A stretch of 53,375 nucleotides of DNA from a virus (IMGVR_UViG_3300032290_000786:1-53375); one strand, 5' to 3'; positions 20,929 to 44,918 are shown, counted from the stretch's first letter. Translations and numbers: made by a program. The notes: generated by a model from the sequence alone, not told the origin.

Positions 20929-20961
20929 TTCTGTATAATGCATTCTTGAAAGGGAGGACTT

Positions 20962-21150
20962 ATGTCTAAAGACATTCCAATAGTGCACGTTACGTTTTTA
21001 CCTCAATGCGATTTCTGCGGAGAGAAGGCAATGTATGACGCGGCAACTAATCTCGGACCCTGGGCCAATCTATGTTCAAATTGTTTTGACATCTATGGGC
21101 TTGGTCTAGGACTAGGTAAAGGTCAGCATCTAGTTCAACTTGACAACTAA
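20962..21150 (+). CDS. small Zn-finger protein
   Basis: CDFC...YDAAT..GPWANLC..CF...GLGLGKGQ; strong RBS. Confidence 0.75.
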   Translation: MSKDIPIVHVTFLPQCDFCGEKAMYDAATNLGPWANLCSNCFDIYGLGLGLGKGQHLVQLDN

Positions 21151-21173
21151 TAAATAGTCTGTCATACTAGGTT

Positions 21174-21250
21174 TGTATCTGGGGCGAATTCCTTACTGGA
21201 TGACGAAAAGGGTTGAGGTCCTAGGCCAAAAATCCCGTTCCCCAGATACA
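21174..21250 (+). ncRNA. structured leader / small RNA starting at predicted TSS
   Basis: 11-bp perfect stem TGTATCTGGGG/CCCCAGATACA enclosing 55 nt, just after promoter 21140. Confidence 0.45.
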
Positions 21251-21279
21251 TTACAAAACAACTACAGAAAGGGTGTCTT

Positions 21280-21462
21280 GTGCAAGAAGAAAAGATTTAT
21301 GATTTTGTAATAAAACTTGCTGGCAGAGTTTCTGCCAAGAACGAAGCAGAAGCAAACAAAAAAATAAATGCACACCTAGATGACCTAGGGGCAATAGATT
21401 CAGCGAAGCACGACCTACATTGGCCTGATGCTTCTTGGGAAATGGAGTATGAACTAAAGTGA
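21280..21462 (+). CDS. hypothetical protein
   Basis: AGAAAGGG RBS, GTG start. Confidence 0.65.
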   Translation: MQEEKIYDFVIKLAGRVSAKNEAEANKKINAHLDDLGAIDSAKHDLHWPDASWEMEYELK

Positions 21463-21755
21463 GTAACGAAACATTAGAAGTAGAAGAGTTAGAAGAAGAT
21501 AGCCCATTCATTACTGCTGGCGCACTTGCGGAGTATGTCTCGCAAGAATTTGAAGAAGATGAAATTGTTAGTTACAACGTCTATTCAAAGTCCGATGTTG
21601 AGTCTGACCTTGATGTTGAACTTACAGACGAACAATGGCTAAGGTTTTTACACCTTTGGGAAAACGATGATGTTCTCAATGAGACTCGTGCCGCGGTTTG
21701 GATGGAGACAGTAGATACCATTCGTCAAGAATTTGGTATTGAGGAAAAAGAATGA
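21459..21755 (+). CDS. acidic hypothetical protein
   Basis: Overlapping operon. Confidence 0.7.
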   Translation: MSNETLEVEELEEDSPFITAGALAEYVSQEFEEDEIVSYNVYSKSDVESDLDVELTDEQWLRFLHLWENDDVLNETRAAVWMETVDTIRQEFGIEEKE

Positions 21756-21943
21756 CACGCACTATAAAAAGTAAAATTGAATTTGAGTTTGATGTTGAGT
21801 TGGCAAACGAAGGCTTAGACACGCCAATGACAGATGACGAACTCATAGAGTATGCAACACGAACATTTGCGGAAGATGTTTATTCAATGTCTTTGCATAA
21901 CGAATTGCAAGGCGCAATTCGGACAATCATAGTAGAAGGGTAA
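21752..21943 (+). CDS. hypothetical protein
   Basis: ATGA overlap. Confidence 0.65.
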   Translation: MTRTIKSKIEFEFDVELANEGLDTPMTDDELIEYATRTFAEDVYSMSLHNELQGAIRTIIVEG

Positions 21944-21947
21944 GGCG

Positions 21948-22355
21948 ATGGGTCAGTATCACGTTTTAGTAAATTACGACAAGAAAGAAACTGTTGTTCC
22001 TCACGCACTCGGGCTCGGCCTGAAGCAATGGGAACACTTAGGGTTTGAAGGCGGCACGCTTGCCGATGCGCTTTACATCCTAACAATGACTTCACCTGCT
22101 CGTGGTGGTGGAGACTTACCTGAGACTGCGGTCTCGGGCCGATGGGCTGGTGACCGATGCTTTGTATACGGTGACTACACCCAAGATTCAGATTTACCCG
22201 ACATCCCAAATGCTGGCAGTCTGCCTATTGAAGGCGAGGGCTGGACAGACATTAGCGAACTAGTTGCCACAGAAATGGGCAAGGTGTTCGGATTCAAGAT
22301 GACGGGTGATGGGTGGAAGCGGCGTGAGTCGCTAACACCTCAGACGCAAGTCTGA
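21948..22355 (+). CDS. conserved phage hypothetical protein
   Basis: MGQYH..VN.DKKE, GLK.WE, GRWAGDR...GDY. Confidence 0.75.
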   Translation: MGQYHVLVNYDKKETVVPHALGLGLKQWEHLGFEGGTLADALYILTMTSPARGGGDLPETAVSGRWAGDRCFVYGDYTQDSDLPDIPNAGSLPIEGEGWTDISELVATEMGKVFGFKMTGDGWKRRESLTPQTQV

Positions 22356-22367
22356 CCCTTTCCCAGT

Positions 22368-22401
22368 AAAGACGGCGTGCCCTTAGGGGTGCGCCGTTTT
22401 T
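22368..22401 (+). terminator. intrinsic terminator
   Basis: GACGGCGTGCCC-TTA-GGGGTGCGCCGTTTTT. Confidence 0.8.
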
Positions 22402-22610
22402 CATTTGTCCACTAAACGGATGACATCCAAATACCTGCACTAGAACGGCAAGTTGTTTACAGATTCACCTGGCGGCCAGGCATTTAGCAAAAAGTAAAAA
22501 TGCACTCCTCCAGGCACGGCGAGGATGGGAAGTTGTTTGTAGTTGGCAGACCTGAAGACCGAATGCCAACACGGCTTGACATCTTAGAAGGCAAGCCCTA
22601 TACTGCGATT

Positions 22611-22760
22611 ATGAAAAAGAAAAATCCACTTGACGGCTTGCTTCGCTTGCGAGGTCGCTTTGTGCTGAACCAAAAAGCACAGGTGTTTGCTGACAAGCGG
22701 AGTAAGCGAAATAAATCTCGCGCCGAACAAAGACGGCGTGCCTTAGAGGAACAGGAGTAA
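22611..22760 (+). CDS. small basic protein (leaderless)
   Basis: ATG 6 nt after TATACT of promoter 22576. Confidence 0.6.
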   Translation: MKKKNPLDGLLRLRGRFVLNQKAQVFADKRSKRNKSRAEQRRRALEEQE

Positions 22761-22768
22761 AAAGTAAA

Positions 22769-23035
22769 ATGACAACGGATACAACACAGGAGCGCTGGAA
22801 CTTGGGCTACTACTCACAACTTGAGGGTGCAACAATTCTGAGGTTCAAGGGAACTGACCCTGATGATTTTGGAAGCCGTGGGTTTCCAATGTTTGTGGCA
22901 CGACTTGCAAATGGAGAACTTGTTGAACTTGTTCTCTCCCAAGACGAAGAAGGTAATGGTGGAGGATTTATGTTCGGACTTCCTGATTACACGCTTCCTG
23001 AGTTTCGCACCACTAAGCACTTGACAAAAAAATAA
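22769..23035 (+). CDS. hypothetical protein
   Basis: LSQDEEGNGGGF motif. Confidence 0.7.
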   Translation: MTTDTTQERWNLGYYSQLEGATILRFKGTDPDDFGSRGFPMFVARLANGELVELVLSQDEEGNGGGFMFGLPDYTLPEFRTTKHLTKK

Positions 23036-23077
23036 AAATCATTATACTTAGCAATGTCTTTAGGGAAAGGAGACAAA

Positions 23078-23233
23078 GTGAATACAGTTTATTTGAAGAT
23101 GGAACTCTCAGATGAGGTTCTAGGTGTTGAAGGGTTTATGGAAGGCTTCCTTCATACTGTTCGTGAATTACAGATAGATGGCGTTGTCACACAATACGAG
23201 TGGGACACAGAACCTTTTGGGGAGGGAAACTAA
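23078..23233 (+). CDS. small hypothetical protein
   Basis: GGAAAGGAG RBS, GTG start, TAATG coupling. Confidence 0.55.
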   Translation: MNTVYLKMELSDEVLGVEGFMEGFLHTVRELQIDGVVTQYEWDTEPFGEGN

Positions 23234-23904
23234 TGCCAAACTGGGTATATAACAATCTCTCAATAGAGGGAACAGAAGAAGCCATTGCGCGAGTAAAGGC
23301 TCAACTCAACAAGCCAATCGTAAAACAATATGGCGAAGACAAAGAAGCAACTACTTATTCAAATCCAATCTTTTCGTTTTGGAACATTATTGCTCCACCT
23401 GCCGAAAAGTTAGATGAATACTTTGGCACTCACGGATTTGATGGTGGTAAGGCTACTGGTGATACTGAATACAACTGGTATAACTTCAACAACCATAAAT
23501 GGGGAACTAAGTGGGATGTCGCAGTATCAGATGGCGAAAGTTATTCTGCTACAGAAATAACTAGCGAGTCTGCTACACACATTTCTTATCGCTTTGATAC
23601 TGCGTGGTCGCCACCACTTCCAGTTATTGAAGAACTATCTGTTCAATACCCTGAGTTAGAAATAACTTTGGAGTATGAAGAGGAACAAGGCTGGGGTGGA
23701 GAAATCCTATGGACAGAAGAAGGCTCTAGTATTATTCGTGAATACGACATACCTGATAGTCACGCTGACTTTGATGAGCGAGACAATCTTGATGGTTGCC
23801 TTTGCGCCACAGAAGAGGAGCAAGACGATTGGTATAAAGACTGCCCTAGAGAAGAAGTTCTTGAACTACAGGCAGAACAACAACTACAAGTAGTAGGGGA
23901 ATAG
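23233..23904 (+). CDS. DUF1281/YubB ferredoxin-like domain protein
   Basis: MPNW..N.L, WY.....WGTKWD, FDTAWSPP, YP.L...L.YEE. Confidence 0.8.
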   Translation: MPNWVYNNLSIEGTEEAIARVKAQLNKPIVKQYGEDKEATTYSNPIFSFWNIIAPPAEKLDEYFGTHGFDGGKATGDTEYNWYNFNNHKWGTKWDVAVSDGESYSATEITSESATHISYRFDTAWSPPLPVIEELSVQYPELEITLEYEEEQGWGGEILWTEEGSSIIREYDIPDSHADFDERDNLDGCLCATEEEQDDWYKDCPREEVLELQAEQQLQVVGE

Positions 23905-23916
23905 GAAAAAGTAAAA

Positions 23917-24177
23917 ATGAGCAAAGACCTAAGTAACGCAACATACTTTGCAATAGATGGAAACTATGGAGATGCTGATGGCATTGTCATTGTTGATACT
24001 TCAGGCTGGTCTGAAGAAGACTGGACTGCGATTGACGAAGTGGGGGACGCTGATAGAGCCAACCTTGCCTACGCACTTGCGAAGTCTGACGACCTTGCGA
24101 GCGCGAGAGGTGCGCTAGAAATCCACGACACAGAGGCAGAACCAATTCTAGGTCGTGATTTGACAAAAAAGGAATAA
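23917..24177 (+). CDS. hypothetical protein
   Basis: YFA.DGNYGDA motif. Confidence 0.7.
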   Translation: MSKDLSNATYFAIDGNYGDADGIVIVDTSGWSEEDWTAIDEVGDADRANLAYALAKSDDLASARGALEIHDTEAEPILGRDLTKKE

Positions 24178-24217
24178 CCTGTCATAATACTCTCAACAAA
24201 CTAACAAAGGGGAAAAA

Positions 24218-24616
24218 GTGGGAAACAGAGTTGTAGTTGGATTTCAAAATCGCAAGGACGACCCAATTATTTATCTTTACCAACATTGGGGAGATGAAAG
24301 TGAGTCTGCTCTTGCTGACGCAATTTATATGGCAGTTAGTCGCTGGAACGACCCTGACTATGCAACTCGCATAGTTATCTCTCGTTTAGTTGCTGACGAT
24401 TGGAAACAAGAATTGGGATATGGCATTTCAGTAAATCGCTTTGCTTTTCCTGATTATGACACTATCAACATTGTTCGCTGGGAAGAAAAAATAGTAACAA
24501 CTAATTCTTCAAATGACCCTGAGACAGAAATCTCTCGTCAAGACCTAGAGGACTTCGTAGTAGGTAACTTACCTGCGACACGCCTTGTTGGTAGTGGATT
24601 TGACAAAAAGGGGTAA
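24218..24616 (+). CDS. conserved phage hypothetical protein
   Basis: MGNR, YLYQHWG, RW.DPDYATRI. Confidence 0.7.
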   Translation: MGNRVVVGFQNRKDDPIIYLYQHWGDESESALADAIYMAVSRWNDPDYATRIVISRLVADDWKQELGYGISVNRFAFPDYDTINIVRWEEKIVTTNSSNDPETEISRQDLEDFVVGNLPATRLVGSGFDKKG

Positions 24617-24677
24617 ATGGTTTTATACTTGACCTACTAGACAGCCTAGTAGTTTTATGAAAGGACACAAGGACACA

Positions 24678-25142
24678 ATGTTAGACAAAGAAAAGAAAGT
24701 TCAAGGGGTAGCAGTTTATGCTGAGTTCCGCAAGCCGGGGCAAACTATGCAACTACTAATAACTCCTGACGCATATACAAACGCAGGAACTCTAATTCCT
24801 ATGGCACTCCACAGACGAGTTGTCACACCTATCACTCCAAAGAAACAATGGAAATCAACTTCCTTCCGCAACGCACAAGTCAAAGAACTTGTTGAGTCGG
24901 GAACAGGTGCAACGCTAGGTGACGACAGTATCTCTGCTTTCACAGATGAGCGAATTCGCTATGGACTCCCATACTTTGACGAAGTTCTAAATGGTGGTTG
25001 GACACTAGAGAACAAGCCAATCCTTACAGAAGTCTCGCGTCACGACGCAGACGATATAGCAAGAGGAAAGACACCTAATAAGGTTCTTTATCGTATTCAT
25101 ATTTCTCGGAAAGCACTCGGCTTTCCTGCGGAATTGGTATAA
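24678..25142 (+). CDS. hypothetical protein
   Basis: AAGGA RBS, after promoter 24600. Confidence 0.7.
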   Translation: MLDKEKKVQGVAVYAEFRKPGQTMQLLITPDAYTNAGTLIPMALHRRVVTPITPKKQWKSTSFRNAQVKELVESGTGATLGDDSISAFTDERIRYGLPYFDEVLNGGWTLENKPILTEVSRHDADDIARGKTPNKVLYRIHISRKALGFPAELV

Positions 25143-25163
25143 GGGAAAGGGGAATAACTTACA

Positions 25164-26216
25164 ATGGATACTCTAAAAGAAAAGTATTCGGCAATTACGC
25201 CGAACCTCACTCCTACTTTGTGGGAAATGATTGAGGCAGTAGCAACGCAGGGAGTAAATGAAAAATCTACGACAGCACTTGCTTCCAATGTTCTACCGCA
25301 AGGACGCTATGTTGAACGAGCAGTTGGTTCAGAGCGTGCGCCACGCAGGTCAAGACTAAAGATGGAACTTCCAGTAGTAGGCGCACTTGAAGGCGAAGAT
25401 ACTTATGTTCGTCCTAATGGTGCTATCTATCACGCTCGCTCTTGGGGAGAACACAAAGATGTTCAAACTTTGATTGAAGCACGCAAAGCAACTACAGAGT
25501 ATGTGAATACAGGTGTAGGTTCTCCATTGTTCGCACTCCTATATGGAGTTCCGGGAACTGGAAAAACTGCGCTAGTTGAAGCCGCTTTTGGAACTGCTAC
25601 ACGAACACTTCTAGGTCACGGAGATGTTGAAGTTGCCGATATGGTTGGTTCATATATCCAAACACCTAGTGGTAATTTTGAGTGGGTAGATGGAGACCTA
25701 ATCAAGGCTATGGAAAATGGAGAAGTCTATTTCGTAGATGAGATTGGTCTGATTGACCCTAAGGTTCTTTCAATTCTTTATGGTGCTATGGACGGACGCC
25801 GTGAAGTAAATGTCACCGCAAACCCTGAGCGCGGAGTTGTAAAGGCACACCCTGAGTTTTATGTGGTGTCTGCTACAAACCCTAACGCTCCCGGCGTGCG
25901 ACTAAGTGAAGCGTTGTTATCTCGTTTCACAGTTCAAGCAGAAATGACAACTGATTGGGCACTCGCAAAGAAGTTGGGTGTGCCAGCACTTGTTGTTACT
26001 GCTGCACAAAATCTCTATCGCAAACAACTAGAGAAGCAAACAAGTTGGTCTCCACAAATGAGAGAACTACTTGCTTTCCGAGATGTCGCAAAGACTTTCG
26101 GAACTGCGTTCGCTCTCTCTAATCTAATCTCTTCCGCACCGCAGAACGACAGAGGCACAGTTACAGATGTTCTCTCTCGGGCTTTCGGTGAGGAAGTAAA
26201 GCCAGCGAAAATCTAA
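25164..26216 (+). CDS. MoxR/CbbQ-type AAA+ ATPase (CobS-like)
   Basis: Walker A GVPGTGKT, Walker B YFVDEI, ATNP sensor, LSEALLSRF. Confidence 0.9.
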   Translation: MDTLKEKYSAITPNLTPTLWEMIEAVATQGVNEKSTTALASNVLPQGRYVERAVGSERAPRRSRLKMELPVVGALEGEDTYVRPNGAIYHARSWGEHKDVQTLIEARKATTEYVNTGVGSPLFALLYGVPGTGKTALVEAAFGTATRTLLGHGDVEVADMVGSYIQTPSGNFEWVDGDLIKAMENGEVYFVDEIGLIDPKVLSILYGAMDGRREVNVTANPERGVVKAHPEFYVVSATNPNAPGVRLSEALLSRFTVQAEMTTDWALAKKLGVPALVVTAAQNLYRKQLEKQTSWSPQMRELLAFRDVAKTFGTAFALSNLISSAPQNDRGTVTDVLSRAFGEEVKPAKI

Positions 26217-26236
26217 TTCCCCTGATTTCGTTGGTA

Positions 26237-26285
26237 GTGGGTTGGGGGTTGATTAGTGTCCTTTTCAGCCCCCACTCTTCCCCAC
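26237..26285 (+). other. 3'-UTR hairpin with pyrimidine-rich loop
   Basis: TGGGGGTTGA/TCAGCCCCCA stem, loop TTAGTGTCCTTT. Confidence 0.6.
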
Positions 26286-26370
26286 GCAGGATTTGACAAA
26301 AGGACAAACAAGTGAGATACTTGGTCTAACAAGTTAGGTTCGGAAGCCTGACAGAAAAGGGAAAAGACAA

Positions 26371-28164
26371 ATGACGCATTTCAAAAGTGGTGAAAGCAAG
26401 GCTCAGGCAACAAGCCCTGAGTGGTTGAAGGTTGGTAAAGATATTGGCTATATGGCAAACAAGTGGGCGTTACGCGACGACATTGTTGCCTATGTAGGTC
26501 CGGGCGCAGGTGGGAACGCACCTGCTTGCTTCAACATTTCCTCTGCGGAAATTGAAGTAAATGTTGATGTTGCTTTCGGCGCAGGTGTAAGTCCTGACGC
26601 GATTGGCGATATTACAACTCGCAAAGTTCAATACGAATTTCCTAGAGCAACAGGGGCAATTCTTCACGAAGCGTTTCACGCACGCTACTCACTATGGTCT
26701 CTGCCAAAAGCATACGAAGACCTAGAGAAAAATCAAAAAGTATTTGACGCATTAGTGCTACTTGAAGAAAGTCGCATTGAATATCAGGGTCTCCAAGCCA
26801 ATTCAAAGGCTCGTCCTTTCTTGCGTGCGAGCGCGATTGAACTTGCTATTGGCGACGCTAGAGAAGGCTTTGAAGTCAAGCAACCAACAATCGCTATCTC
26901 TAATCTAGTTGGATTAGTTCATAGTCGCATTGACGCAGGTATTCTTGACGCACACGAAGTTGCTGACATTGTTGAGTGGGTCAATACTCAAATTGACTCT
27001 GACAAAGTTACACAACTTCGCGACCTTGCTCGCTTGGCACAAATGCACGATAAGCATAGAGACGCAACAGAACTCTACCCAATCGCAAAAGAGTGGGTTC
27101 GCATTGTTGATGAAATTGCTAAAGAGCGTGGAGAAAACCCTGACGAAAAACCTGAGGGTTGTTTCCCAATTCCAAAAGAGTTAGCAGATAAGATTATGGA
27201 GATTATGAAGGAAGTTGGCGAAGAAGTTGAAATGAATAACTTCGGAGAACTTTCAGACCAAGAACAATCTGAGGACTTCAAGGAAGAAGCAAAGTCTCGC
27301 GCTGACGAGTCAAAGGAACAATTAGAGAACGAAGAAATTGCTTCTGAGGTCTTTGATAAATCTACTGGTGTTGGAACTTCTAAAACCAACAGCAGACTAA
27401 AAGAGACACGACAGCCAAACGCAGAAGAGCGTTCTGCTTCAGTTCGCATTGGCGAACTTATGGAGAAAGCAAAATATCGTGAGCGCGATATTACTGACAT
27501 AGATAGTCAGACACCTCCGGGGCGATTGAAAACTCGCGCCATTATTCAGAACAAGGCACTACGCGAACGCGGAGTTGTCTCTAGGGAAAATCCTTTCCGT
27601 AGAACTGTTCGCAAACAAACTGATGAACCAACACTCAATGTTGGCATTATGGTTGATATTAGTGGCTCAATGGGAAGTGCTATGAACCCTATGGCTACAA
27701 CTGCTTGGGTTATGTCTGAAGCAGTAAATCGTATTCAGGGCAACTGCGCTATGGTCTATTACGGAAATGATGTGTTCCCAACTCTAAAGGTTGGACAACG
27801 ACTTCCTGAAGTAAATGTTTATACTGCACCTGATGGAACTGAAAAATTCACGAAGGCGTTCAAGGCATTAGATGGAGAACTAAATCTTCTCTATGGAAAT
27901 GGCGCACGACTTCTTGTTATTGTTTCTGATGGACAATATACAAGTGAAGAAACAAGGAGTGCTAAAGAAATTATTCGCAAGTGCGAGAGTGCTGGCGTTG
28001 CAGTTCTATGGCTTCCCTTTGACTACGGCTCAGGTGCTAGAGAGATTGGACAAGGCTACGCAGAAATCGTGTCGGACATTACCGACCCTGCTGGTGCTTC
28101 CGAACTTATCGGTATGAAGGCTATGGAAGTTATGACTAGAGTTGGACAGAGGCAAGTTGCCTAA
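26371..28164 (+). CDS. VWA (MIDAS) protein with HExxH metallopeptidase-like N-terminal domain (CobT-like partner)
   Basis: HEAFH, EESRIE, DISGSM, VSDG; adjacent to the MoxR ATPase. Confidence 0.85.
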   Translation: MTHFKSGESKAQATSPEWLKVGKDIGYMANKWALRDDIVAYVGPGAGGNAPACFNISSAEIEVNVDVAFGAGVSPDAIGDITTRKVQYEFPRATGAILHEAFHARYSLWSLPKAYEDLEKNQKVFDALVLLEESRIEYQGLQANSKARPFLRASAIELAIGDAREGFEVKQPTIAISNLVGLVHSRIDAGILDAHEVADIVEWVNTQIDSDKVTQLRDLARLAQMHDKHRDATELYPIAKEWVRIVDEIAKERGENPDEKPEGCFPIPKELADKIMEIMKEVGEEVEMNNFGELSDQEQSEDFKEEAKSRADESKEQLENEEIASEVFDKSTGVGTSKTNSRLKETRQPNAEERSASVRIGELMEKAKYRERDITDIDSQTPPGRLKTRAIIQNKALRERGVVSRENPFRRTVRKQTDEPTLNVGIMVDISGSMGSAMNPMATTAWVMSEAVNRIQGNCAMVYYGNDVFPTLKVGQRLPEVNVYTAPDGTEKFTKAFKALDGELNLLYGNGARLLVIVSDGQYTSEETRSAKEIIRKCESAGVAVLWLPFDYGSGAREIGQGYAEIVSDITDPAGASELIGMKAMEVMTRVGQRQVA

Positions 28165-28175
28165 GTCCTAAAGAT

Positions 28176-28248: not shown

Positions 28249-28282
28249 CCTAGTAGCAAAAAGTAAAAACGAAAGGGAGAAG

Positions 28283-38163: not shown

Positions 38164-38322
38164 GAGCAAGGGCTGGCATAGGAAAAAGTAAAAACCTATC
38201 CAGCCCTTTGCTGTTTCTCAACGACACGCCGAAAGTCAGGAAGGTTTGACAAAAGGTCAGGAAGGCTGTAATCTTAGGGTATTAGTAAAAGTTACTAATA
38301 AGCAAGAAAGGGAAATGACGAA

Positions 38323-38729: not shown

Positions 38730-38741
38730 GATAAAGTAAAA

Positions 38742-38909
38742 ATGGTTCTAGATACAGGCACACTTATTGGAATTACGATTGCGCTCGCAAGTTCTTGCAT
38801 AGTTATGGTTATCTCTATACGCTCTCATCGGGAGTTGTTACAAGAGAACAAAGCCTTGAAGGCACTACTTCGTGCCGAAAGAGAAATCAAGAGAGGGGGA
38901 AATAACTAA
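38742..38909 (+). CDS. small TM plus coiled-coil protein
   Basis: Read manually; coupled to the next ORF. Confidence 0.55.
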   Translation: MVLDTGTLIGITIALASSCIVMVISIRSHRELLQENKALKALLRAEREIKRGGNN

Positions 38910-39076
38910 TGGAAGAAATTACAACGACAGACGCCGCTTGCGGTTTCACTTGCCAGTTTGAGTGGATTGAAGTTTCATCAAACTTCTTCAACATCTCATT
39001 CTATACTCCAACACTAATCGCTGGACTAGTTGGATACTTTATCTATCGAGTAATCAAGAGAGCAAAGGGTAAGTAA
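38909..39076 (+). CDS. small membrane protein
   Basis: Read manually; TAATG on both ends. Confidence 0.55.
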   Translation: MEEITTTDAACGFTCQFEWIEVSSNFFNISFYTPTLIAGLVGYFIYRVIKRAKGK

Positions 39077-39543
39077 TGACAAAGCCAACTTGGGACAAAC
39101 TAGTTGAGGCAACACCTATGCACAATGGGAAACTTGTCGAACTAGAGCCTAACCAAACTTTCTGGCACAACAAGTTCTATGTAGTTGTGCGGACAGTCCT
39201 TGAACCTGAACTAGGGGAAAAGAGTGGTCTTCACCTGTCTATCCGACACCAAGAACGAAAAGCAATTCGGGATTGGCGACACTTTCAGCGCATCAAAAAC
39301 GAACTCGCTGGGGCAGAACGAGAAGCCGTAGAAATCTTCCCGCCTGAGTCCCAACTTGTTGATACTGCTAACCAGTATCACCTCTGGGTTCTTCCTGAAG
39401 GAACTACAAGTTTCTTTACTTGGAAGGACGGACGCCACGTTACGGACAATGCACAAGACCCCGAGACTGCTCAATGGTTGCGGGACAAAGGTATTGACCC
39501 ACAATTCACACAGAACTCTGTTCAGCGTCCGCAGGAGGAGTAA
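39076..39543 (+). CDS. conserved phage protein
   Basis: HLSI, DWRHFQRIKNEL.G...EAVEIFPPESQLVDTANQYHLW. Confidence 0.75.
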   Translation: MTKPTWDKLVEATPMHNGKLVELEPNQTFWHNKFYVVVRTVLEPELGEKSGLHLSIRHQERKAIRDWRHFQRIKNELAGAEREAVEIFPPESQLVDTANQYHLWVLPEGTTSFFTWKDGRHVTDNAQDPETAQWLRDKGIDPQFTQNSVQRPQEE

Positions 39544-39746
39544 TGGCAAAAAGTAAAAACATCGCAGAATCTGCGGCACAACTCTACGAAGGTGGGTTGT
39601 CTGTAGATGGTGTCGCTTCAGAACTAAAAGTCTCTTACAGATGTGCCCGTAGGGCTATCAAAAGTAGAGGCGTAATTTTACGAGACCCTTCAGCGCGGTT
39701 GAAGGGGAGAACTTCCCCTAAGAAGAAAAGGACAACAAATGAATAA
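39543..39746 (+). CDS. small HTH DNA-binding protein
   Basis: LYEGGLSVDGVASELKVSY......KSRGVILR. Confidence 0.75.
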   Translation: MAKSKNIAESAAQLYEGGLSVDGVASELKVSYRCARRAIKSRGVILRDPSARLKGRTSPKKKRTTNE

Positions 39747-39891
39747 CCTCAACATAGTTTGGACTGCCGTAGCAACTATAGGCTTCGGACTTGCTTCTTT
39801 TCTCGCTGCGTGGCAGAATAGTGTTGCTTGGTCTATCAGTCTAGGATTGTCAGCCGTTGCGTCAGCAACGCTGGCTAGCCGAGAGAAGTAG
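39739..39891 (+). CDS. small two-TM protein
   Basis: Read manually; AAAGGA RBS. Confidence 0.55.
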   Translation: MNNLNIVWTAVATIGFGLASFLAAWQNSVAWSISLGLSAVASATLASREK

Positions 39892-39912
39892 GTCAGGCTA
39901 CCTCCAAAGCGC

Positions 39913-39951
39913 AAGACCCTCTACTACCTTCCTCTGTAGGGGGTTTTGTTT
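39913..39951 (+). terminator. intrinsic terminator with CU-rich loop
   Basis: GACCCTCTAC-TACCTTCCTCT-GTAGGGGGTTTTGTTTT. Confidence 0.7.
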
Positions 39952-40029
39952 TGGCGTGTCGCTTGACTTAGTATAAATAGTGATGTAGTCTATGACTATC
40001 AAAGAAAAACTCAAGAAGGGGGTTTTTAG

Positions 40030-40143
40030 ATGAAAACCAAGAAAGAACAAATCATTTACATAAACTGCTGGAAATGCGGTCAAGTCTTTGCCACGCCTGA
40101 GCGTGAGTATAGAAATGGGCTCATTTGTGAGAAGTGTTACTAA
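40030..40143 (+). CDS. small Zn-ribbon protein
   Basis: CWKCG...CEKC; promoter 39963 plus RBS. Confidence 0.55.
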   Translation: MKTKKEQIIYINCWKCGQVFATPEREYRNGLICEKCY

Positions 40144-40202
40144 AAAACTTTAGATTTTTGGTAGAAAATGATACCTTCCTGACCTTTTTATGCTAATCTA
40201 GA

Positions 40203-40345
40203 ACCCTGAGAGCGACTCTAAGGACGCATTAGACACGAAAGGTTGAACAGACCTTATCTCCCCAAAGCGGGGGGAATAGAAGGTGGGCTTCTACAGACAC
40301 CGCGGTGGTTGGTAAGTCAGACCACTTGTCCCTATCCCCGAACAA
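40203..40345 (+). ncRNA. candidate structured 5' leader
   Basis: Four or five hairpins with alternative AAGGT/ACCTT pairings upstream of the transglycosylase. Confidence 0.4.
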
Positions 40346-40357
40346 AGGAAACACTCA

Positions 40358-40966
40358 ATGAATAGACCTACTAGCGGAGCCATCGAGAAAATCATTAGCG
40401 TTGCTGTAGCGGCTATATTTTTATCAGCATTTTCTGCTGCAACGCAGAACTCAAGTGCTGAAGAGATTGCCAAGATAAAACAACAAGAAGTAAAAACTCA
40501 GGCGGATATAGAAGCCGAGATTGAAAAGCAAAGACAGAAGATTGCCAAACTCCAACTGCAGAAGTTCTCAGTCCAGAAGACTGCCTTCACAGATGTCGAG
40601 TTAGCACAGATGCTTGCCGCTGTTGGGTTTGAAGGAAAAGCCCTCAAGACTGCGTGGGCTGTCGTAAAGAAGGAAAGTAATGGTCGTCCTCTTGCCTTCA
40701 ATGGCAACACACGGACTGGCGACTCTTCCTATGGCATATTCCAAATCAATATGATTGGCGGGCTAGGAGTTACACGCCGAGACAAGTATGATTTGGACAG
40801 CAACAAGGATTTATTTGACGCCGTTATCAACGCACAGATTGCTTACCATATGAGCAATGGTGGCGAGGATTGGACTTCGTGGAAAATCTCAGCCCCTTAC
40901 ACAAACTCAGATGAGATAAGATTTAGACAGTGGTATGAAAAGTTCCCAGAAGGAGTAGTTGGATGA
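40358..40966 (+). CDS. exported lysozyme-like lytic transglycosylase
   Basis: Signal/TM, coiled coil, AWAVVKKES, SYGIFQIN, N..IAY.MS.GG.DW..W. Confidence 0.8.
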   Translation: MNRPTSGAIEKIISVAVAAIFLSAFSAATQNSSAEEIAKIKQQEVKTQADIEAEIEKQRQKIAKLQLQKFSVQKTAFTDVELAQMLAAVGFEGKALKTAWAVVKKESNGRPLAFNGNTRTGDSSYGIFQINMIGGLGVTRRDKYDLDSNKDLFDAVINAQIAYHMSNGGEDWTSWKISAPYTNSDEIRFRQWYEKFPEGVVG

Positions 40967-41421
40967 GCCAAGAAGATTTAGATTACACAAACTATTATCA
41001 AGACGAACCTGCTGTTGAAGAGGTTGCGGTTGAAGAAGCAGAAGTTGTTGTTGTTGCAGAACCAGAAGTTGCTGCAGAGCCAATAGCAAAAAGTAAAAAG
41101 TCTTCAGCCGCCGCTGCTGTAGAACCAGAAGTTGTTTATTCTCCACCAGCATCTTCAGCACTGGAGTTGGGCGAGGTTCGTCTTTCAAGTCTTGTGTTTG
41201 AGGGAAATAGCGTGAACTCTCGGTCAGTTGCGTTAGTGCAGGAACGCCTAGTTGAACTAAGTTTCTATGATGCGGGAAGCGATAATCGCGGTTGGTTGGG
41301 TGCTGGAACTAAGAAAGCGCTCGCTGATTTCGCAGGTTTGAGCGTAGAAGAAGTTGTTGTAGATAGTGAAGAACTCATCAAGCGTCTCTTCGCAGGAACA
41401 CAAGTATCTGTAAGTAAGTAA
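40963..41421 (+). CDS. acidic protein with possible PG-binding-like C-terminal domain
   Basis: V.LVQERLVEL.F.....D..GWLGAGTKKAL..F. Confidence 0.55.
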   Translation: MSQEDLDYTNYYQDEPAVEEVAVEEAEVVVVAEPEVAAEPIAKSKKSSAAAAVEPEVVYSPPASSALELGEVRLSSLVFEGNSVNSRSVALVQERLVELSFYDAGSDNRGWLGAGTKKALADFAGLSVEEVVVDSEELIKRLFAGTQVSVSK

Positions 41422-41517
41422 CTTTCAACAAATCAGCGCTCTGGCTGTCAAATAAAATTGACTAGCCAGGGCGCTTTTTACTTTTTGCGCCCCGTGTAGA
41501 CTCGGAAGGACGACACA

Positions 41518-41802
41518 ATGGCTAAAGAAAAAACTGCTGTGGAAAATAATGATAAGACGATGGATAAAGCGAAGATGCTTGTTGGTCGTGTTATTGCTAC
41601 TTTTGCAGCATCAGGACTATCTGTCGTAGGTGCAGGGTCTTTGTTTGGTATTGAAGTATGGAAGTCAATTGGTCTTGCGGGTGGTTTGGGTGTCGCTACT
41701 GTTATAGAAGCGTTGTCTCGTTCTTATCTTGCAGATGGAAAGTTGACTACTGCTGAAATCAACGAAGCATTTAGCAAGGTTGACAAGCGTAAGGCTGAAT
41801 AG
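41518..41802 (+). CDS. holin-like two-TM membrane protein
   Basis: R.IATF.ASGL.V.GAG, DGKLT..EINEAF. Confidence 0.55.
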   Translation: MAKEKTAVENNDKTMDKAKMLVGRVIATFAASGLSVVGAGSLFGIEVWKSIGLAGGLGVATVIEALSRSYLADGKLTTAEINEAFSKVDKRKAE

Positions 41803-41825
41803 CATTTACCGATAGTTGTTCAAAT

Positions 41826-41864
41826 AAAGAAACCCCCTAGAGAAATCTAGGGGGCTTTCTTTTT
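41826..41864. terminator. bidirectional terminator at convergence of early transcription
   Basis: AAAGAAACCCCCTAGA-GAAA-TCTAGGGGGCTTTCTTTT. Confidence 0.85.
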
Positions 41865-41865
41865 A

Positions 41866-41946
41866 TTACTTCTGAATAGGGTCTTGAAGTAGAGCGATTG
41901 CTGTTCCTACAAGCCCTGCAAGGATTGCCATTATTGCGATAGCCAT
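41866..41946 (-). CDS. 26-aa hydrophobic peptide
   Basis: Own promoter (42002), RBS and terminator. Confidence 0.5.
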   Translation of the reverse strand: MAIAIMAILAGLVGTAIALLQDPIQK

Positions 41947-42149
41947 TTCCTCTTCCCTTTCTATTCGGTATAAGATATATAATATCTTATCACACACACT
42001 ATGTCAAGCAACAACACAATAGTTTATTTTCTTTGTGCCTTCGTTCTTCGTGTGAACCCAAGCGAACACCCAGCCTCGCTCGCGGTGGAAGAGTTCTTTT
42101 ATCTCCACCTGTCCCCCACAAGTATTACAGTTCTTTACTTCTTCAGACA

Positions 42150-42803
42150 TTACCAACACCTATTTCGGTTCTTCTCCATAATTGGTTGATAAGTCTTTGT
42201 CTCGCCGTGAACTGTTGCCTTGTATCCATAGCGAACAAGTCGGAAAGCAATAGCACTCGGAGTAACACCTAACAACTTTGCTAAGCGGTATTGAGTGCAA
42301 CCTTGCTTTATTGCCTCGTTGAGTAGGTAAGAGTATTCCTCTGCCTCTTCACGATACTTTGGTGAGTGCGACCTAACAAGTGCTGCTAATGGTTGTAGTT
42401 CCTTCATACGAGCCAACATTTCAGGATTAGGTTCCGTGTATACGGGTTTGACCTTTACCTTCATTTGTTTGCGTTCAGGTAGTGGAACTGCAAGTGTTGC
42501 AGGTGGGTGTTCAGTCTGTGTCCAGTTACGGGAGATAAGACGAATACTTTCAGTAGACATCTTCGCTGACCTCGCAATTGCTGTTGCTGTCCAACCTGCA
42601 CTCTCTAGAGCCTTGATGTAGTTATTGCGGTCTGACCTGCTAATAATGCTAGCGAAAGCATTAGTAACATTTTCAGGCAATACCTGTCCATACTTTTGCA
42701 CTACGCCTTGTTGAATAATCACAGGGCGTTTTCCTTGAGTCTCTCGCATAGCGTGAGCCTTTTGTAGGATTTCAGGGTTTGTCCCAAAATTTACCTTTGA
42801 CAT
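42150..42803 (-). CDS. twin HTH DNA-binding protein (paralog of 3651-4226)
   Basis: Shared LQPLA..VRSHSP.YR.EAEEYS and RLAK.LGVT...FRL.RYGY. Confidence 0.8.
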   Translation of the reverse strand: MSKVNFGTNPEILQKAHAMRETQGKRPVIIQQGVVQKYGQVLPENVTNAFASIISRSDRNNYIKALESAGWTATAIARSAKMSTESIRLISRNWTQTEHPPATLAVPLPERKQMKVKVKPVYTEPNPEMLARMKELQPLAALVRSHSPKYREEAEEYSYLLNEAIKQGCTQYRLAKLLGVTPSAIAFRLVRYGYKATVHGETKTYQPIMEKNRNRCW

Positions 42804-42952
42804 ATATTTCCTTTCGTTTGGTTATACCCTAAGTATATTAGTTAGTATTTATTTTGTCAAATCATTTGCTAAGTTACCAACCAGTAACTAAGTTGTTTGG
42901 AAGTGGGACAACCGGCCGCTGCCCATTTTTACTTTTTGTTATTGCTTCTTCA

Positions 42953-42987
42953 GAAAATAACCCCCGCGTTGTGCGGGGGCTATCTTC
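42953..42987 (-). terminator. intrinsic terminator
   Basis: AAAATAACCCCCGC-GTTGT-GCGGGGGCTATCTT. Confidence 0.75.
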
Positions 42988-42996
42988 CTCAGTTGT

Positions 42997-43332
42997 TTAG
43001 AGTTTGAGTAGTGTGCGGAGTTCGTTGGCTACTTTGTCGTCAAGACCTAGTGTCTCGCCTTCGTCCCCTGTCCCACCTGTGAAGATTACATCTCCAACAA
43101 TTACATCTGTAAAGCCGAAGTGCTTTTCCCATAGTAGGGTTGCGATTGCGTTGATAGGGAGTCCGTTTAGTTTTCCCTCTTCATTTACCCACATCGTTAG
43201 ATTGTCTGATAAATCTACCGCTTCAATGTAACCGCCTACTGCCTTTTGTAATGTAGACAGTTGAGACTCTCCCTCGTTGAGGTCTATCTCTTCTGCCTTG
43301 TTACCTTCTGCCGTTAGTGTTATTGCGAGCAA
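42997..43332 (-). CDS. DUF3846 domain protein
   Basis: LQKAVGGYIEAV, VNEEGKL.GLP.N..AT, D.IVGDV.F.G. Confidence 0.85.
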   Translation of the reverse strand: MLAITLTAEGNKAEEIDLNEGESQLSTLQKAVGGYIEAVDLSDNLTMWVNEEGKLNGLPINAIATLLWEKHFGFTDVIVGDVIFTGGTGDEGETLGLDDKVANELRTLLKL

Positions 43333-43408
43333 TTTAGTTTCCTCTCTTTGTCGCTTTGTCTTATCGTAAGTCTAGAGCATAGAGTTCTATATGTCAAGTA
43401 TTGGGGGA

Positions 43409-43445
43409 AAGAAAAACCCCCGCAGGTTATGCGGGGGCTTCTCTC
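43409..43445 (-). terminator. intrinsic terminator
   Basis: AAAAACCCCCGCA-GGTTA-TGCGGGGGCTT. Confidence 0.8.
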
Positions 43446-43452
43446 TAAGCCT

Positions 43453-43710
43453 TTAGGCTGATGTAGTTGAGAAGACTACTGCCTCTTCCTCTACTACCTC
43501 TTCAGTAGTTGTTGGGTGATTGAGGACGAGGTATAGAAGTTCTTCTGCACCCATCTCTTCGTGAGGTTCCCCACGAGTCTCTTTCATTACTACAACCTTC
43601 TCAATAGGTGCGGTAGCACCTAGTAGGAGTTCTCTTACTTGAGCCTTTGTGTCAATGATGTAGTAGTAAGTAGTTCCCTTGATTGTTACTGCTGTTCCAT
43701 ATGCGGTCAT
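43453..43710 (-). CDS. hypothetical protein
   Basis: Promoter, RBS and terminator cassette. Confidence 0.65.
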   Translation of the reverse strand: MTAYGTAVTIKGTTYYYIIDTKAQVRELLLGATAPIEKVVVMKETRGEPHEEMGAEELLYLVLNHPTTTEEVVEEEAVVFSTTSA

Positions 43711-43824
43711 TCGTTTTCCCCTTTTCTTTATATTGAAGCCCTTTGCTTCAATAAGATAAACATATACTACTTCTATACGCTTTGCAAGTCTAACTAGGTA
43801 TATGACCAGTCACACTTTAGTCAT

Positions 43825-43853
43825 AAGAAAACCCCCCTATGCGGGGGGCTTTC
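43825..43853 (-). terminator. intrinsic terminator
   Basis: AAGAAAACCCCCC-TATGC-GGGGGGCTTTC. Confidence 0.75.
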
Positions 43854-43861
43854 CTAGAGCC

Positions 43862-44011
43862 TTACCAAAACTTAGACCATACTCTGATTGGTTTCTCTGC
43901 TACTTGTAGAGCCTTTACTATTACAAGTGCAACACTCTCTAGAGTATCTTCAACCTTCTCTAAGATTTCCTTTTCTTCCTTTGAGAAGTTTGCGGTTACC
44001 TTGATTTCCAT
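43862..44011 (-). CDS. small hypothetical protein
   Basis: Read manually; promoter 44078, AAAGGGG RBS. Confidence 0.55.
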   Translation of the reverse strand: MEIKVTANFSKEEKEILEKVEDTLESVALVIVKALQVAEKPIRVWSKFW

Positions 44012-44118
44012 TTTCTTTCCCCTTTGTTAGGTTTTTACTTTTTCCTAACACCTAAATACTATCAAGTCTTTGTTATATGTCAAGTGTTTACTAATATATC
44101 CTCTGTGATTTAGGCAAC

Positions 44119-44149
44119 AAGAAAGCCCCCCTTGCGGAGGGCTTCCTTT
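44119..44149 (-). terminator. intrinsic terminator
   Basis: AAGAAAGCCCCCC-TTGC-GGAGGGCTTCCTT. Confidence 0.7.
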
Positions 44150-44150
44150 G

Positions 44151-44363
44151 TTACTTGCCGTTCTTTATATCTATTAGGTCTTGTATGTCTGCTTCCCAAG
44201 ACTGAACATCGTGTAGTTGTTCATCGCTTGCGGATAGTTCCCACTTCTCTACTTCTTGAGCGTATGTCTCTAGTTCTTCTAGCGACTTTGTTTCTGCTAA
44301 GTCCAGCCATTTGATGTATTCATCATCTGCTAGGTATTCAGCAAGTGTTGGAAGTTTTTGCAT
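44151..44363 (-). CDS. acidic hypothetical protein
   Basis: Promoter 44437, GAAAGGG RBS. Confidence 0.65.
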   Translation of the reverse strand: MQKLPTLAEYLADDEYIKWLDLAETKSLEELETYAQEVEKWELSASDEQLHDVQSWEADIQDLIDIKNGK

Positions 44364-44918
44364 TTGGTTCCCCTTCCTAGTGTCAATCACCCCCTGTGAT
44401 TTCCACTAACTAAATACTATTACACTAGGATATATATGTCAAGTGTTTCCTCTAGGATTTATCTCACATATATGTAAGAGGTTACTCAGGAGTAACTTAG
44501 CCAGACGCTCAGGGGGGTAGTAACTATCAACAACTACTTGACCCTTGACTAGTCAGACACTAGCCAGCCTAGAAAGAAAATAAAATCATAAGAGCAATAG
44601 CAAAAAGTAAACTTGAGTCGCCTTGACTCACCTTTGACAAGTAAAAGTTATTAGTTGTTAGTAATACTCTCCATCTTCCTTGAAAATAATCTGACTAGGC
44701 ATAAGACCTTTGTTTTTTCATATAAATCTAGAAAATTAAAAGTTGTTTTGATGTCATTTATTTTTTATCCGGAAACGATTTGGAAAAGCGCTCAATATAT
44801 GCAGAGCCTTCTCACAGGCCAAAACCAAAATACGGAAACCTTCATATATTCGTCTGCATCGTCCAAGTATCTTGGAACTGTCTCTGTACGCTTATAAAAA
44901 ATACTGTACAATAGTAGT

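Follow-up and report, generated by a model that had tools for sequence, protein, structure and literature searches.

Gene content and promoters of the early region

The window, a stretch of 53,375 bases, represents about 40% of the roughly 130-kb genome of an uncultured, low-GC freshwater actinobacterial siphophage, whose group includes phage DSL-LC01 together with Microbacterium and Arthrobacter phages that have genomes of 186-194 kb. Positions 20929-44735, hereafter the island, are an early region in which densely spaced host-type (TTGACA/TATAAT) promoters precede dozens of small genes. A search of both strands for TTGAC[AT]-16..18-xAxxxT yielded 32 sites in 18.5-44.74 kb, compared with 3 in 1-18.5 kb and none in 44.74-53.4 kb. 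Twenty-five of them form a promoter-like array on the plus strand (18644..37547), and six lie on the minus strand (37915..44442), with -35 hexamers at 37943, 42007, 42860, 43397, 44083, and 44442; of these, the five from 42007 onward drive leftward genes at the island's right end, and the remaining minus-strand site, the seventh, is at 19678. The same region carries an array of the motif (T)AGCAAAAAGTAAA(AA), which has 28 matches with at most one mismatch, compared with 1.7 by chance; 25 of the 28 fall within 18441..44611, frequently in the gap from a stop codon to the next ATG.

Among the plus-strand genes, a highly conserved 98-aa protein with a net charge of -25 (21459..21755) is a candidate early effector. 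It has 236 protein matches at E<=0.001, with 72-100% identity among the 120 matches listed, and the quality of its model was too low for use. Profile matches identify an AAA_5 (MoxR/CobS-like) ATPase (25164..26216), which is followed by a 597-aa partner protein (26371..28164) that belongs to no Pfam family and whose relatives are deposited as CobT-like or AAA-ATPase. An HslV/proteasome-like peptidase (33041..33610) and a dual-specificity phosphatase domain protein (37555..38163) are also assigned by profile matches, and a lysozyme-like (SLT_3) protein (40358..40966) by Pfam. The minus strand encodes a 217-aa basic protein (42150..42803) whose helix-turn-helix match falls below threshold (HTH_3, 22.5 bits; cut-off, 23), a DUF3846 protein identified by Pfam (42997..43332), and a 79-aa acidic ORF with 25% D+E (44151..44390), which is the first leftward gene from the right limit and has only two protein matches at E<=0.001 (99% and 81% identical). 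Outside the island, the rightward late module starts with a gene at 44919..45419 (plus strand), identified by tblastn in relatives, and includes the portal protein gene (46409..48172, plus strand).

A Pfam scan of 27 of the roughly 50 ORFs called in the island, mostly those of about 80 aa or more, gave no match to anti-restriction families (Ocr, ArdA, ArdB/KlcA, and the like), and neither did a PHROGs scan of 10 of these 27 ORFs. In addition, tblastn of the window with T5 dmp, A1, A2, and three other T5 pre-early proteins detected no homologue of dmp, A1, or A2; at E<=1, only short matches to two hypothetical proteins were obtained (best E 0.024). Proteins with equivalent roles but no homology may still be encoded.

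Loss of restriction palindromes from the island

Several four-letter restriction palindromes have been scrubbed from this 24-kb block of early genes. TTAA occurs at 20925 and next at 44736, with no site across the 23.8 kb between them, where 85 (maximal-order Markov model) or 100 (flank density) are expected; outside the island, the window contains 124 TTAA sites, and the second-longest site-free gap is 1.4 kb. CATG is found at 20739 and then at 47898 (0 in the island, 36-55 expected), and between 19932 and 44886 GTAC occurs only once, at 37828 (21-66 expected). CCWGG is present 6 times in the island and 48 times in the flanks. The sequence-only reading had described a region without TTAA or CATG and with a single GTAC, with these limits, and the computed counts, which could have come out flat, reproduce every coordinate: depletion in 20929-44735 is extreme, while the words are common on both flanks. 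ACGT (5 sites, 33-52 expected) and TCGA (6 sites, 21-65 expected), two words beyond that reading's list, are scarce as well. ACNGT, GANTC, GCNGC, GGNCC, and CCNGG are partially reduced in the island, and 6-mer palindromes as a whole class number 66 there, compared with 133-155 expected. GATC and AGCT are missing from all 53,375 bases of the window, where about 150 and 198, respectively, are expected.

The palindromes are removed through context-dependent choice of synonymous codons. Where Phe, Leu, Ile, or Val precedes Lys or Asn, an NTT codon is used in 0 of 129 pairs in the island and in 74 of 226 in the flanks. Leu preceding an A-initial codon is never encoded by TTA in the island (0/129; flanks, 31/192), and His preceding a G-initial codon is never encoded by CAT (0/32; flanks, 15/35). 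The overall usage of these context-restricted codons is nevertheless similar in the island and the flanks. A contrast in Pro-Gly dipeptides had been pointed out earlier, and it holds over greedy ORF calls of at least 60 aa: CCA or CCT encodes the proline in none of the 6 island pairs, compared with 35 of the 35 flank pairs.

Limits of the island and the probable terminal repeat

The purge starts at a promoter with a 12/12 match to the consensus (TTGACA-17-TATAAT, 20911..20939, plus strand), which is followed by a ribosome-binding site and an ATG at 20962, and the final TTAA (20925) lies inside the promoter spacer. It ends in a divergent intergenic region (44391..44918) that contains the TTAA at 44736, the GTAC at 44886, the final motif copy (44599), and the final promoter-like site (44442). 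In the relatives G002 and G004, the island stops no more than about 115 bp before the tblastn match to 44919..45419, and in G001 it stops just inside that match. The purge had been proposed to share both limits with the arrays of promoters and of the AAAAGTAAA motif. This is correct on the right but not on the left, where the two arrays begin at about 18.4-18.6 kb, 2.4 kb left of the purge.

A long direct terminal repeat probably has its left end at approximately 18300..18550. In two samples (runs X1 and X2), contig k-mer depth steps up by a factor of about 1.7-1.8 at roughly 18.5 kb, although these values are not copy numbers, and a co-occurring strain sharing only the island would give the same step. 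In run X1, exact-match Logan contigs have depths of 35.2, 35.5, 31.1, 35.2, and 42.2 up to 18510 and of 70.2, 63.2, and 58.2 from 20385 on; in run X2, depth changes from 17.7 through 26.5 (a single contig spanning 17050-21372) to 30.4. The step lies just upstream of a 303-aa ORF (18551..19462, plus strand; no Pfam family) that is homologous to the first terminal-repeat gene of Microbacterium phage Pumpernickel (positions 113-982) and Arthrobacter phage Mimi (201-620 and 172861-173280). Exact direct terminal repeats measure 19,963 bp in Pumpernickel, 19,868 bp in Mimi, and 7,581 bp in GodonK. Among left-truncated related loci, 7 of 14 have a contig end within about 1 kb of the start of the homologue of 18551-19462. 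A depth step just upstream of the homologue of the relatives' first repeat gene points to a T5-like long terminal repeat and supports a repeat start at about 18.5 kb, and the island would then be inside this repeat or largely coincide with it. At the other end, a homologue of the 217-aa protein is 1.75 kb from the right end of the Pumpernickel repeat, which stops 9.7 kb short of the late module; the island may therefore extend past the repeat, which would argue against entry of the right end first. The presumed repeat is rich in TTAA and CATG over its initial 2.4 kb (18.5-20.9 kb), which is awkward for entry of the left end first. No purge of this kind is seen in the terminal repeats of T5, Pumpernickel, Mimi, and GodonK, indicating that a long repeat alone does not predict one.

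Within the 2.4 kb left of the purge, 19650..20910 is an unpurged, poorly conserved, and probably non-coding stretch with direct repeats (AGCGGCCCGC five times, TAAGTTGTT four times, and AGATAACGGCRTG three times), and hairpins are found at 19621-19667 and 20597-20621. In tblastn searches of relatives, only one of its four minus-strand ORFs (19653-19916) gave a match, which was short and confined to G002. We infer that this stretch may be the counterpart of the injection stop region of T5.

The island in related phages

Related contigs were collected with two family markers, the 597-aa protein (26371..28164) and the portal protein (46409..48172). Four of five near-full-length related contigs (G001-G004) contain one purged island of 18-31 kb at the matching map position, each with its own word set; the fifth, G006, whose 597-aa protein is 48% identical, contains none. 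In G001, 13 of the 16 four-letter palindromes are missing over 30.5 kb (49.8-80.3 kb), and nine words have site-free gaps of 29-32 kb with coinciding ends. The ratio of island to remaining density in this contig is 0.08 or less for 13 of 15 assessable 4-mer palindromes, while the lowest value among 120 non-palindromic words is 0.33. The removed words are TTAA, CATG, GTAC, ACGT, and CCWGG in G002; ACGT, ATAT, CGCG, and CCWGG in G003; and ACGT, AGCT, GTAC, and GGCC in G004 and G005, where TTAA is abundant. At 26 further related loci, depletion of at least 10-fold on the island side was observed in 43 of 340 palindrome tests and in 1 of 3120 non-palindrome tests; on that side, at least one palindrome shows depletion of this size in 22 of the 26 loci from the portal search that could be assessed. 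The results show that the purge is specific to palindromes and is conserved in map position, with sharply defined limits and word sets that differ between lineages.

These comparisons also bear on whether the island is a mosaic module lately imported from a phage that avoids the words genome-wide, an outcome named in advance as fatal to the sequence-only reading. Donors of that kind exist, as the close relative DSL-LC01 lacks TTAA and ATAT throughout its genome. However, because the same map position recurs with differing word sets by lineage (G001-G005 and the 22 of 26 further loci), a recent import is largely refuted, and we give it hardly any credence. The GC content and codon use of the island match those of the flanks, and the avoidance of GATC and AGCT is common to both.

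Proposed staged entry of the phage genome

We consider it probable that the island is the DNA exposed first to host restriction enzymes and that the rest of the genome is protected later. Delivery would be staged in a T5-like manner: the island would reach the cytoplasm and be expressed while the other ~100 kb are still outside or out of reach, and its products would then render the remaining genome insensitive to type II restriction. With the rest protected later, selection against restriction sites would act on the island only. Each lineage would have dropped the words targeted by restriction enzymes in its own host population, and words outside the reach of the later protection (GATC and AGCT here) would be lost genome-wide. 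Our preferred polarity, weakly held, is that the right-hand copy of the repeat goes first, entering from the 44.7-kb end, and that transfer pauses in the repeat-rich, unpurged stretch at 19.65-20.9 kb; this would mirror the arrangement in T5, where the terminus is followed by the pre-early genes, then by the stop signal and the inner boundary of the repeat. In this model, the entry order, its polarity, the pause, and the protection that follows are all inferred. The two-step entry suggested earlier is supported in part, by the terminal repeats of relatives, the depth step, and the confinement of host-type promoters to 18.6-44.4 kb; its expectation of anti-restriction genes finds no known family in the scans, and tblastn detected no A1, A2, or dmp homologues in the window. 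Counting against staged entry, ~100 kb of DNA would need insensitivity to up to 13 specificities.

The promoter array would also fit a transcription-paced, T7-like entry from the left end with no T5-type stop signal, in which host RNA polymerase, once a short leader is inside, would start at the promoter array (20911) and, moving rightward, slowly pull in the plus-strand early genes, leaving the island exposed for minutes ahead of the late DNA. The 25 co-oriented plus-strand sites in 18.6-37.5 kb, the onset of the purge exactly at a consensus promoter, and an island of about 18% of the roughly 130-kb genome agree with this, as does the finding that only motifs in the early-injected region matter in T7-like phages (PMC12455610). 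Yet the 2.4-kb leader before the first strong promoter would lead despite its many sites, transcription of the island's last 2.6 kb runs leftward, and the long terminal repeats of the relatives are T5-like rather than T7-like, so that we regard this mode of entry as unlikely.

Normal site densities in non-island DNA could instead mean that the whole genome enters together, with about 100 kb of virion DNA protectively modified and the island unmodified, for example because host RNA polymerase needs early promoters or genes in an unmodified state; site avoidance would then be required of the island alone. Consistent with this, the flanks and relatives encode methyltransferase-like, glycosyltransferase-like, and dioxygenase-like proteins (window 7080-7868 and 6136-7080, and the DSL-LC01 annotation). 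Base replacement or site-specific methylation would reach the island too, however, and the limits of the purge track transcription-unit and repeat-related landmarks and not sequence context. We know of no phage DNA modification that spares one contiguous block of 24-30 kb, and we consider partial modification quite unlikely.

Returning to staged entry, a further claim can be made only tentatively, at slightly less than even confidence: that a whole clade of abundant freshwater actinophages delivers a first segment of 24-31 kb from which almost all 4-bp palindromes cleavable by its hosts have been removed, and that this segment encodes broad protection of the other ~100 kb, covering a dozen or more type II specificities simultaneously. 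If so, a regional purge of palindromes would read out, from sequence alone, the first-exposed DNA and the relevant host enzymes, even in uncultured phages, and the word lists of the lineages would be fingerprints of the restriction repertoires in uncultured host populations.

Comparison with known phages

The principle that sites matter in the DNA that enters first is already established experimentally in T5, BF23, and T7-like phages; our literature search found no report of the effect at this scale or in this phage lineage. The T5 and BF23 (Tequintavirus) genomes resemble the present one in a long direct terminal repeat (probable here), small early genes, strong host-type promoters, and, toward the inner end, non-coding DNA rich in repeats; in the T5 record, the repeat is 1-10219 and the injection stop signal is 9140-10149. 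PMC10644984 describes both phages as resisting type I and II systems unless sites are located in the first-step-transfer DNA, and the present genome likewise tolerates sites outside the segment but not inside it, here as a signature in the sequence. Two-step transfer is a feature of T5, in which A1 and A2 are required for the second step and protein synthesis relieves the pause, and it is a proposal here. The present phage belongs to a different lineage that infects actinobacteria and shows no sequence relation to T5 (no A1, A2, or dmp homologue). The segment is also larger, 24-31 kb or ~18-24% of the genome in the present clade compared with 8% in T5. The T5 repeat has not suffered wholesale loss of 4-mer palindromes (TTAA 107, with 86 expected; only AGCT and GTAC are about 2-fold low), while up to 13 of 16 words are removed in the present clade.

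T5 degrades host DNA in the first-step stage (described in 10.64898/2026.04.02.716235), and by the same timing logic a regional pattern would follow if the island, alone present in the first minutes, avoided sites attacked by nucleases that shred host DNA and are encoded or activated by the phage. We find this improbable, as one lineage has lost up to 13 palindromes, far more specificities than one would expect a phage to encode, the scanned island ORFs include no recognised restriction-type nuclease, and staged entry would be required anyway.

For the T7-like Murciavirus and the type I system Mme2I, PMC12455610 describes a similar rule, in which motifs in the first-injected, leading region alone decide sensitivity; the region varies and harbours anti-defence genes. 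A single type I motif is at stake there, over a few kb of a 40-kb podophage, whereas many type II-like 4-bp palindromes are lost over 24-31 kb of a roughly 130-kb siphophage here, and no Ocr or ArdA-like family was recognised among the scanned island ORFs.

The host-takeover module of Bacillus phage SPO1, a terminal redundancy full of small early genes with strong early promoters, is also like the island, by description only. SPO1 DNA contains a replaced base throughout the genome, and we are not aware that restriction sites have been described as regionally lost in this phage.

Genome-wide site avoidance in phages involves the same selective agent and the same synonymous-codon route as the island. 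Examples are the window itself, which lacks GATC and AGCT, and DSL-LC01, which lacks TTAA and ATAT in 129 kb; Mimi has 2 CCWGG sites in 192 kb. The island differs from these cases in that a second tier of words is missing only in one sharply bounded block.

Depletion of palindromes in the island

The island (20929-44735) is a block of the window depleted of several four-letter palindromes, and computed counts confirm all the coordinates that the sequence-only reading had reported for TTAA, CATG, and GTAC. TTAA shows a single gap of 23,811 bases, from 20925 to 44736, with 124 sites elsewhere and a second-largest gap of 1.4 kb. For CATG the gap spans 27 kb (20739 to 47898), and GTAC occurs once between 19932 and 44886. 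The expected island counts are 85-100 for TTAA, 36-55 for CATG, and 21-66 for GTAC. ACGT (5 sites) and TCGA (6 sites) are also strongly reduced in the island, CCWGG occurs 6 times there versus 48 times in the flanks, and a reduction of about 2-fold affects several interrupted palindromes and the 6-mer palindromes taken together. Neither GATC nor AGCT occurs anywhere in the 53,375 bases (expected, about 150 and 198), which is a second, genome-wide tier of avoidance. The same genome-wide avoidance of GATC and AGCT is found in the related contigs G002 and G003 (one AGCT in the latter) and in several other loci.

The residual CCWGG, GGCC, and CCGG sites in the island cluster at 22468-22510, 34883-34926, and 41466, in GC-rich hairpin-like elements adjoining AAAAGTAAA, and this clustering suggests a structural constraint that outweighs the purge. 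An Rfam scan of the entire window at the gathering threshold gave no family match for the AAAAGTAAA-linked elements; a tRNA-Gly (TCC) at 7913-7985 on the minus strand is the sole Rfam or ARAGORN match.

The purge acts on DNA and is specific to palindromes

The purge reflects selection at the DNA level, because the island open reading frames (ORFs) keep the relevant amino-acid pairs but never use the codon pair that spells TTAA, CATG, or CCWGG. In greedy ORF calls of at least 60 aa, some of which are not genes, an NTT codon precedes Lys or Asn in 0 of 129 cases in the island versus 74 of 226 in the flanks, Leu TTA stands ahead of an A-initial codon in 0 of 129 versus 31 of 192, and His CAT stands ahead of a G-initial codon in 0 of 32 versus 15 of 35. 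The proposed difference in the codons of Pro-Gly pairs is borne out as well, with CCA or CCT used in 0/6 island pairs and 35/35 flank pairs. Island and flanks are alike in overall codon use.

The purge is also specific to palindromes. In G001, a related contig of 125.8 kb, the island/rest ratio is at most 0.08 for 13 of the 15 assessable 4-mer palindromes, and the lowest ratio among 120 non-palindromic 4-mers is 0.33. Only CTAG and TATA remain in the G001 island, and GATC is missing genome-wide.

The island is the early region

The island is the early region of the genome. Promoter-like sites (TTGAC[AT]-16..18-xAxxxT) number 32 in 18.5-44.74 kb, 3 in the first 18.5 kb, and 0 after 44.74 kb; 25 of the 32 lie on the plus strand, up to 37.5 kb, and 7 on the minus strand, five of these at 42.0-44.4 kb. 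A promoter at 20911 that fits TTGACA-17-TATAAT perfectly holds the last TTAA in its spacer. With at most one mismatch allowed, the motif (T)AGCAAAAAGTAAA(AA) is matched 28 times versus 1.7 expected, and 25 of the matches fall in 18441-44611. The motif could be an early-gene junction element, part of a promoter, or a protein-binding site. Copies often occupy precisely the space that separates an ORF's stop codon (its TAG or TAA) from the ATG of the following ORF, and after some copies come a GC-rich hairpin and AAGTTGTTTG. The islands of close relatives contain the motif too, and distant relatives lack it.

Few island products can be recognised, namely an AAA_5 ATPase and its 597-aa partner, an HslV-like peptidase, a dual-specificity phosphatase, an SLT-like lysozyme, and WGR, DUF3846, and DUF7694 proteins. 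Profile searches of island ORFs (27 against Pfam, 10 of these also against PHROGs) detected none of the known anti-restriction families, and tblastn with the T5 pre-early proteins (dmp, A1, A2, and three others) found no homologues in the window, only short matches with a best E of 0.024. Several small island ORFs are very acidic. One of them (21459-21755; 98 aa, net charge -25) has 236 protein matches at E≤0.001, and the 120 matches listed are 72-100% identical, so that it is better conserved across the clade than the ATPase partner (40-70%); its structural model from a 24-sequence alignment has a mean pLDDT of 51.6, which is too poor to use. For an acidic ORF of 79 aa (44151-44390), placed at the island's right end, only 2 proteins match at E≤0.001.

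Purged islands in related phages

The closest named relative of the phage is Actinomycetia phage DSL-LC01 (metagenome-assembled, 129 kb), which has the same gene order and a portal that is 75% identical, followed by Microbacterium phages of 186-194 kb (Pumpernickel and others) and then by Arthrobacter and Gordonia phages. Megablast against 50,697 phage records found no DNA-level relatives of the island, and its relatives appear only at the protein level. The 597-aa island protein as a query recovered 32 related IMG/VR loci, and in many of them palindromes disappear a few kb upstream of its gene, with words that vary by lineage. In G001, nine words have site-free gaps of 29-32 kb, with left ends at 49.3-51.5 kb (seven within 49.3-49.8 kb) and right ends at 80.3-81.3 kb. 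TTAA, CATG, GTAC, ACGT, and CCWGG are purged across about 24-54 kb of G002 (127 kb), and the purged words of G003 (123 kb) are ACGT, ATAT, CGCG, and CCWGG. G004 and G005 are purged of ACGT, AGCT, GTAC, and GGCC across about 2-21 kb, and TTAA is unaffected (924 sites in G004). In G001, G002, and G004, the contigs onto which window ORFs were mapped, the left limit of the island lies 1-2 kb past the homologue of the window ORF 18551-19462, and the right limit coincides with the beginning of the homologue of 44919-45419, the ORF that opens the portal module. We found no island in the related contig G006. In DSL-LC01 (OQ999401), TTAA and ATAT each occur 0 times in all 129,469 bases.

A portal search added 80 further loci out of at least 595 matches, among which 26 distinct loci have enough sequence on both sides. 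At least one palindrome is depleted at least 10-fold on the island side in 22 of these 26, and depletion of this degree occurs in 43 of 340 palindrome tests versus 1 of 3120 non-palindrome tests. The 10-fold criterion was used in place of a Poisson test at P<0.001, which was dropped after it also flagged 11-16% of non-palindromic words. Recent import of the island is rejected, because the island lies at the same map position in relatives and its word sets differ by lineage. The purged island is a clade trait, recurring across a clade with hundreds of metagenomic members as a block of 24-31 kb that has lost 4 to 13 four-letter palindromes.

Probable link to a long terminal repeat

Among the cultured relatives, Pumpernickel has an exact direct terminal repeat of 19,963 bp and Mimi (Arthrobacter) one of 19,868 bp, both opening with the homologue of the window ORF 18551-19462, and the repeat of GodonK is 7,581 bp. 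In Logan contigs that match the window exactly, the k-mer depth in one sequencing run is 31-42 as far as 18510 and 58-70 beginning at 20385, and in a second sample it changes from 17.7 to about 30 along the window; these depths are per-contig means rather than copy numbers, and a strain mixture could imitate the step. The depth stays high to 29 kb, the end of the stretch compared. In addition, 7 of 14 left-truncated related loci end no more than about 1 kb from where the first repeat gene begins, compared with about 3 expected for uniformly spread ends. Together, the depth step, the repeats of the relatives, and the contig ends point to about 18.3-18.5 kb in the window as the probable start of a long repeat.

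With regard to the other end, the Pumpernickel repeat stops 9.7 kb short of the late module. Of the portal loci, 59/80 are cut on the left, and their distances to the first late gene are broad and length-biased, without a single peak. The full contigs G001, G002, G003, G005, G006, and DSL-LC01 show no terminal overlaps. The first 758 bases of G004 recur at its end with 96% identity, so this 'linear' contig joins two strain variants in a wrapped assembly; its start reflects that wrap instead of a physical end, and the break falls within the first repeat gene. G008 (160.7 kb) was considered as an assembly with both repeat copies and rejected, as it holds one copy of the first repeat gene.

The terminal repeats of Pumpernickel, Mimi, GodonK, and T5 were examined for a purge, with a negative result. 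Neither the T5 repeat (TTAA, 107 versus 86 expected) nor those of the cultured relatives have lost 4-mer palindromes wholesale, unlike the island. The 192,528 bases of Mimi contain just two CCWGG sites, one in each repeat copy, and TTAA is missing over about 6-18 kb of the repeat, though it is sparse throughout.

Staged delivery as the probable cause

A cut at any position kills a phage genome, so a regional purge is sensible only if regions differ in exposure, protection, or history. History is excluded by the map position and the word sets, and we know of no precedent for regional protection by DNA modification. Since differential exposure has been shown in T5, BF23, and T7-like phages, the island is on balance best read as the first-exposed DNA of a staged delivery, and the words absent genome-wide (GATC and AGCT here) would be those outside the reach of later protection. 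According to one study, type I and type II systems act on T5 and BF23 only via sites in the first-step-transfer DNA, a long terminal repeat with the pre-early genes, and protection of the remaining DNA is described there as unexplained (PMC10644984). The same rule is stated for the early injected region of T7-like phages (PMC12455610).

On the right, the purge is flush with the limit of the island; on the left, it ends 2.4 kb before the probable boundary of the repeat is reached, at a poorly conserved stretch rich in repeats. By analogy with T5, the right-hand repeat copy may enter first from about 44.7 kb and pause at 19.65-20.9 kb, which would require a repeat end near 44.7 kb. Provided that the repeat does end there, such right-end-first entry would mirror the T5 layout best. 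No homology to the T5 machinery was found in the window.

Novelty and implications

The principle is already known, and what sets this case apart is the degree and the setting of the purge. Evidence that freedom from restriction sites is required only of the DNA entering first comes from a handful of laboratory phages and concerns single 6-bp or type I motifs. In the present case that logic appears as a genome-scale scar, in which up to 13 of 16 four-letter palindromes are erased from a 30-kb block and are at normal density across the remaining genome, and most of a large clade of uncultured lake phages bears this scar; the runs containing the window sequence are labelled as freshwater, aquatic, or lake metagenomes. 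A full-text search of openly accessible articles brought up no description of a palindrome purge confined to one region, either in these phages or in others. In the DSL-LC01 paper, 'terminal repeat' and 'palindrom' have 0 occurrences, and among the passages listed the only one on restriction concerns a methyltransferase (PMC10611076).

The purge may serve as a purely computational marker of early-exposed DNA and of probable genome ends in metagenomic phages, and the purged words would list the restriction specificities actually faced by each phage lineage. The approximately 50 small early genes form a defined set in which to seek a putative broad anti-restriction function. Pumpernickel and Mimi, which are cultured and have 20-kb terminal repeats, offer a laboratory entry point.

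Other features of the window

Related contigs of 123-133 kb have completeness ratings of 92-100%, so the window represents roughly 40% of a genome. Its left arm carries ribonucleotide reductase, endolysin, and virion protein genes, and its right arm carries the portal gene and then a giant ORF that runs past the contig end (49081-53373, plus strand; >1431 aa). The last 90 residues of this ORF weakly match a DNA polymerase exonuclease PHROG (E 2.7e-10), and the matching position in DSL-LC01 is occupied by a hypothetical protein of about 3,290 aa, a purely positional correspondence. ORF 15448-15954 contains three tandem 39-nt units at 15523-15678 (at least 73% alike) that encode a Lys/Ser-rich repeat. 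Two paralogue pairs have one member outside and one inside the island: the HslV-like peptidases (282-869 and 33041-33610) and the helix-turn-helix-like proteins of 206/217 aa (3651-4271 and 42150-42803, both on the minus strand). The Pumpernickel repeat gene is closer to the outside copy of the latter pair (56%) than to the island copy (44%).
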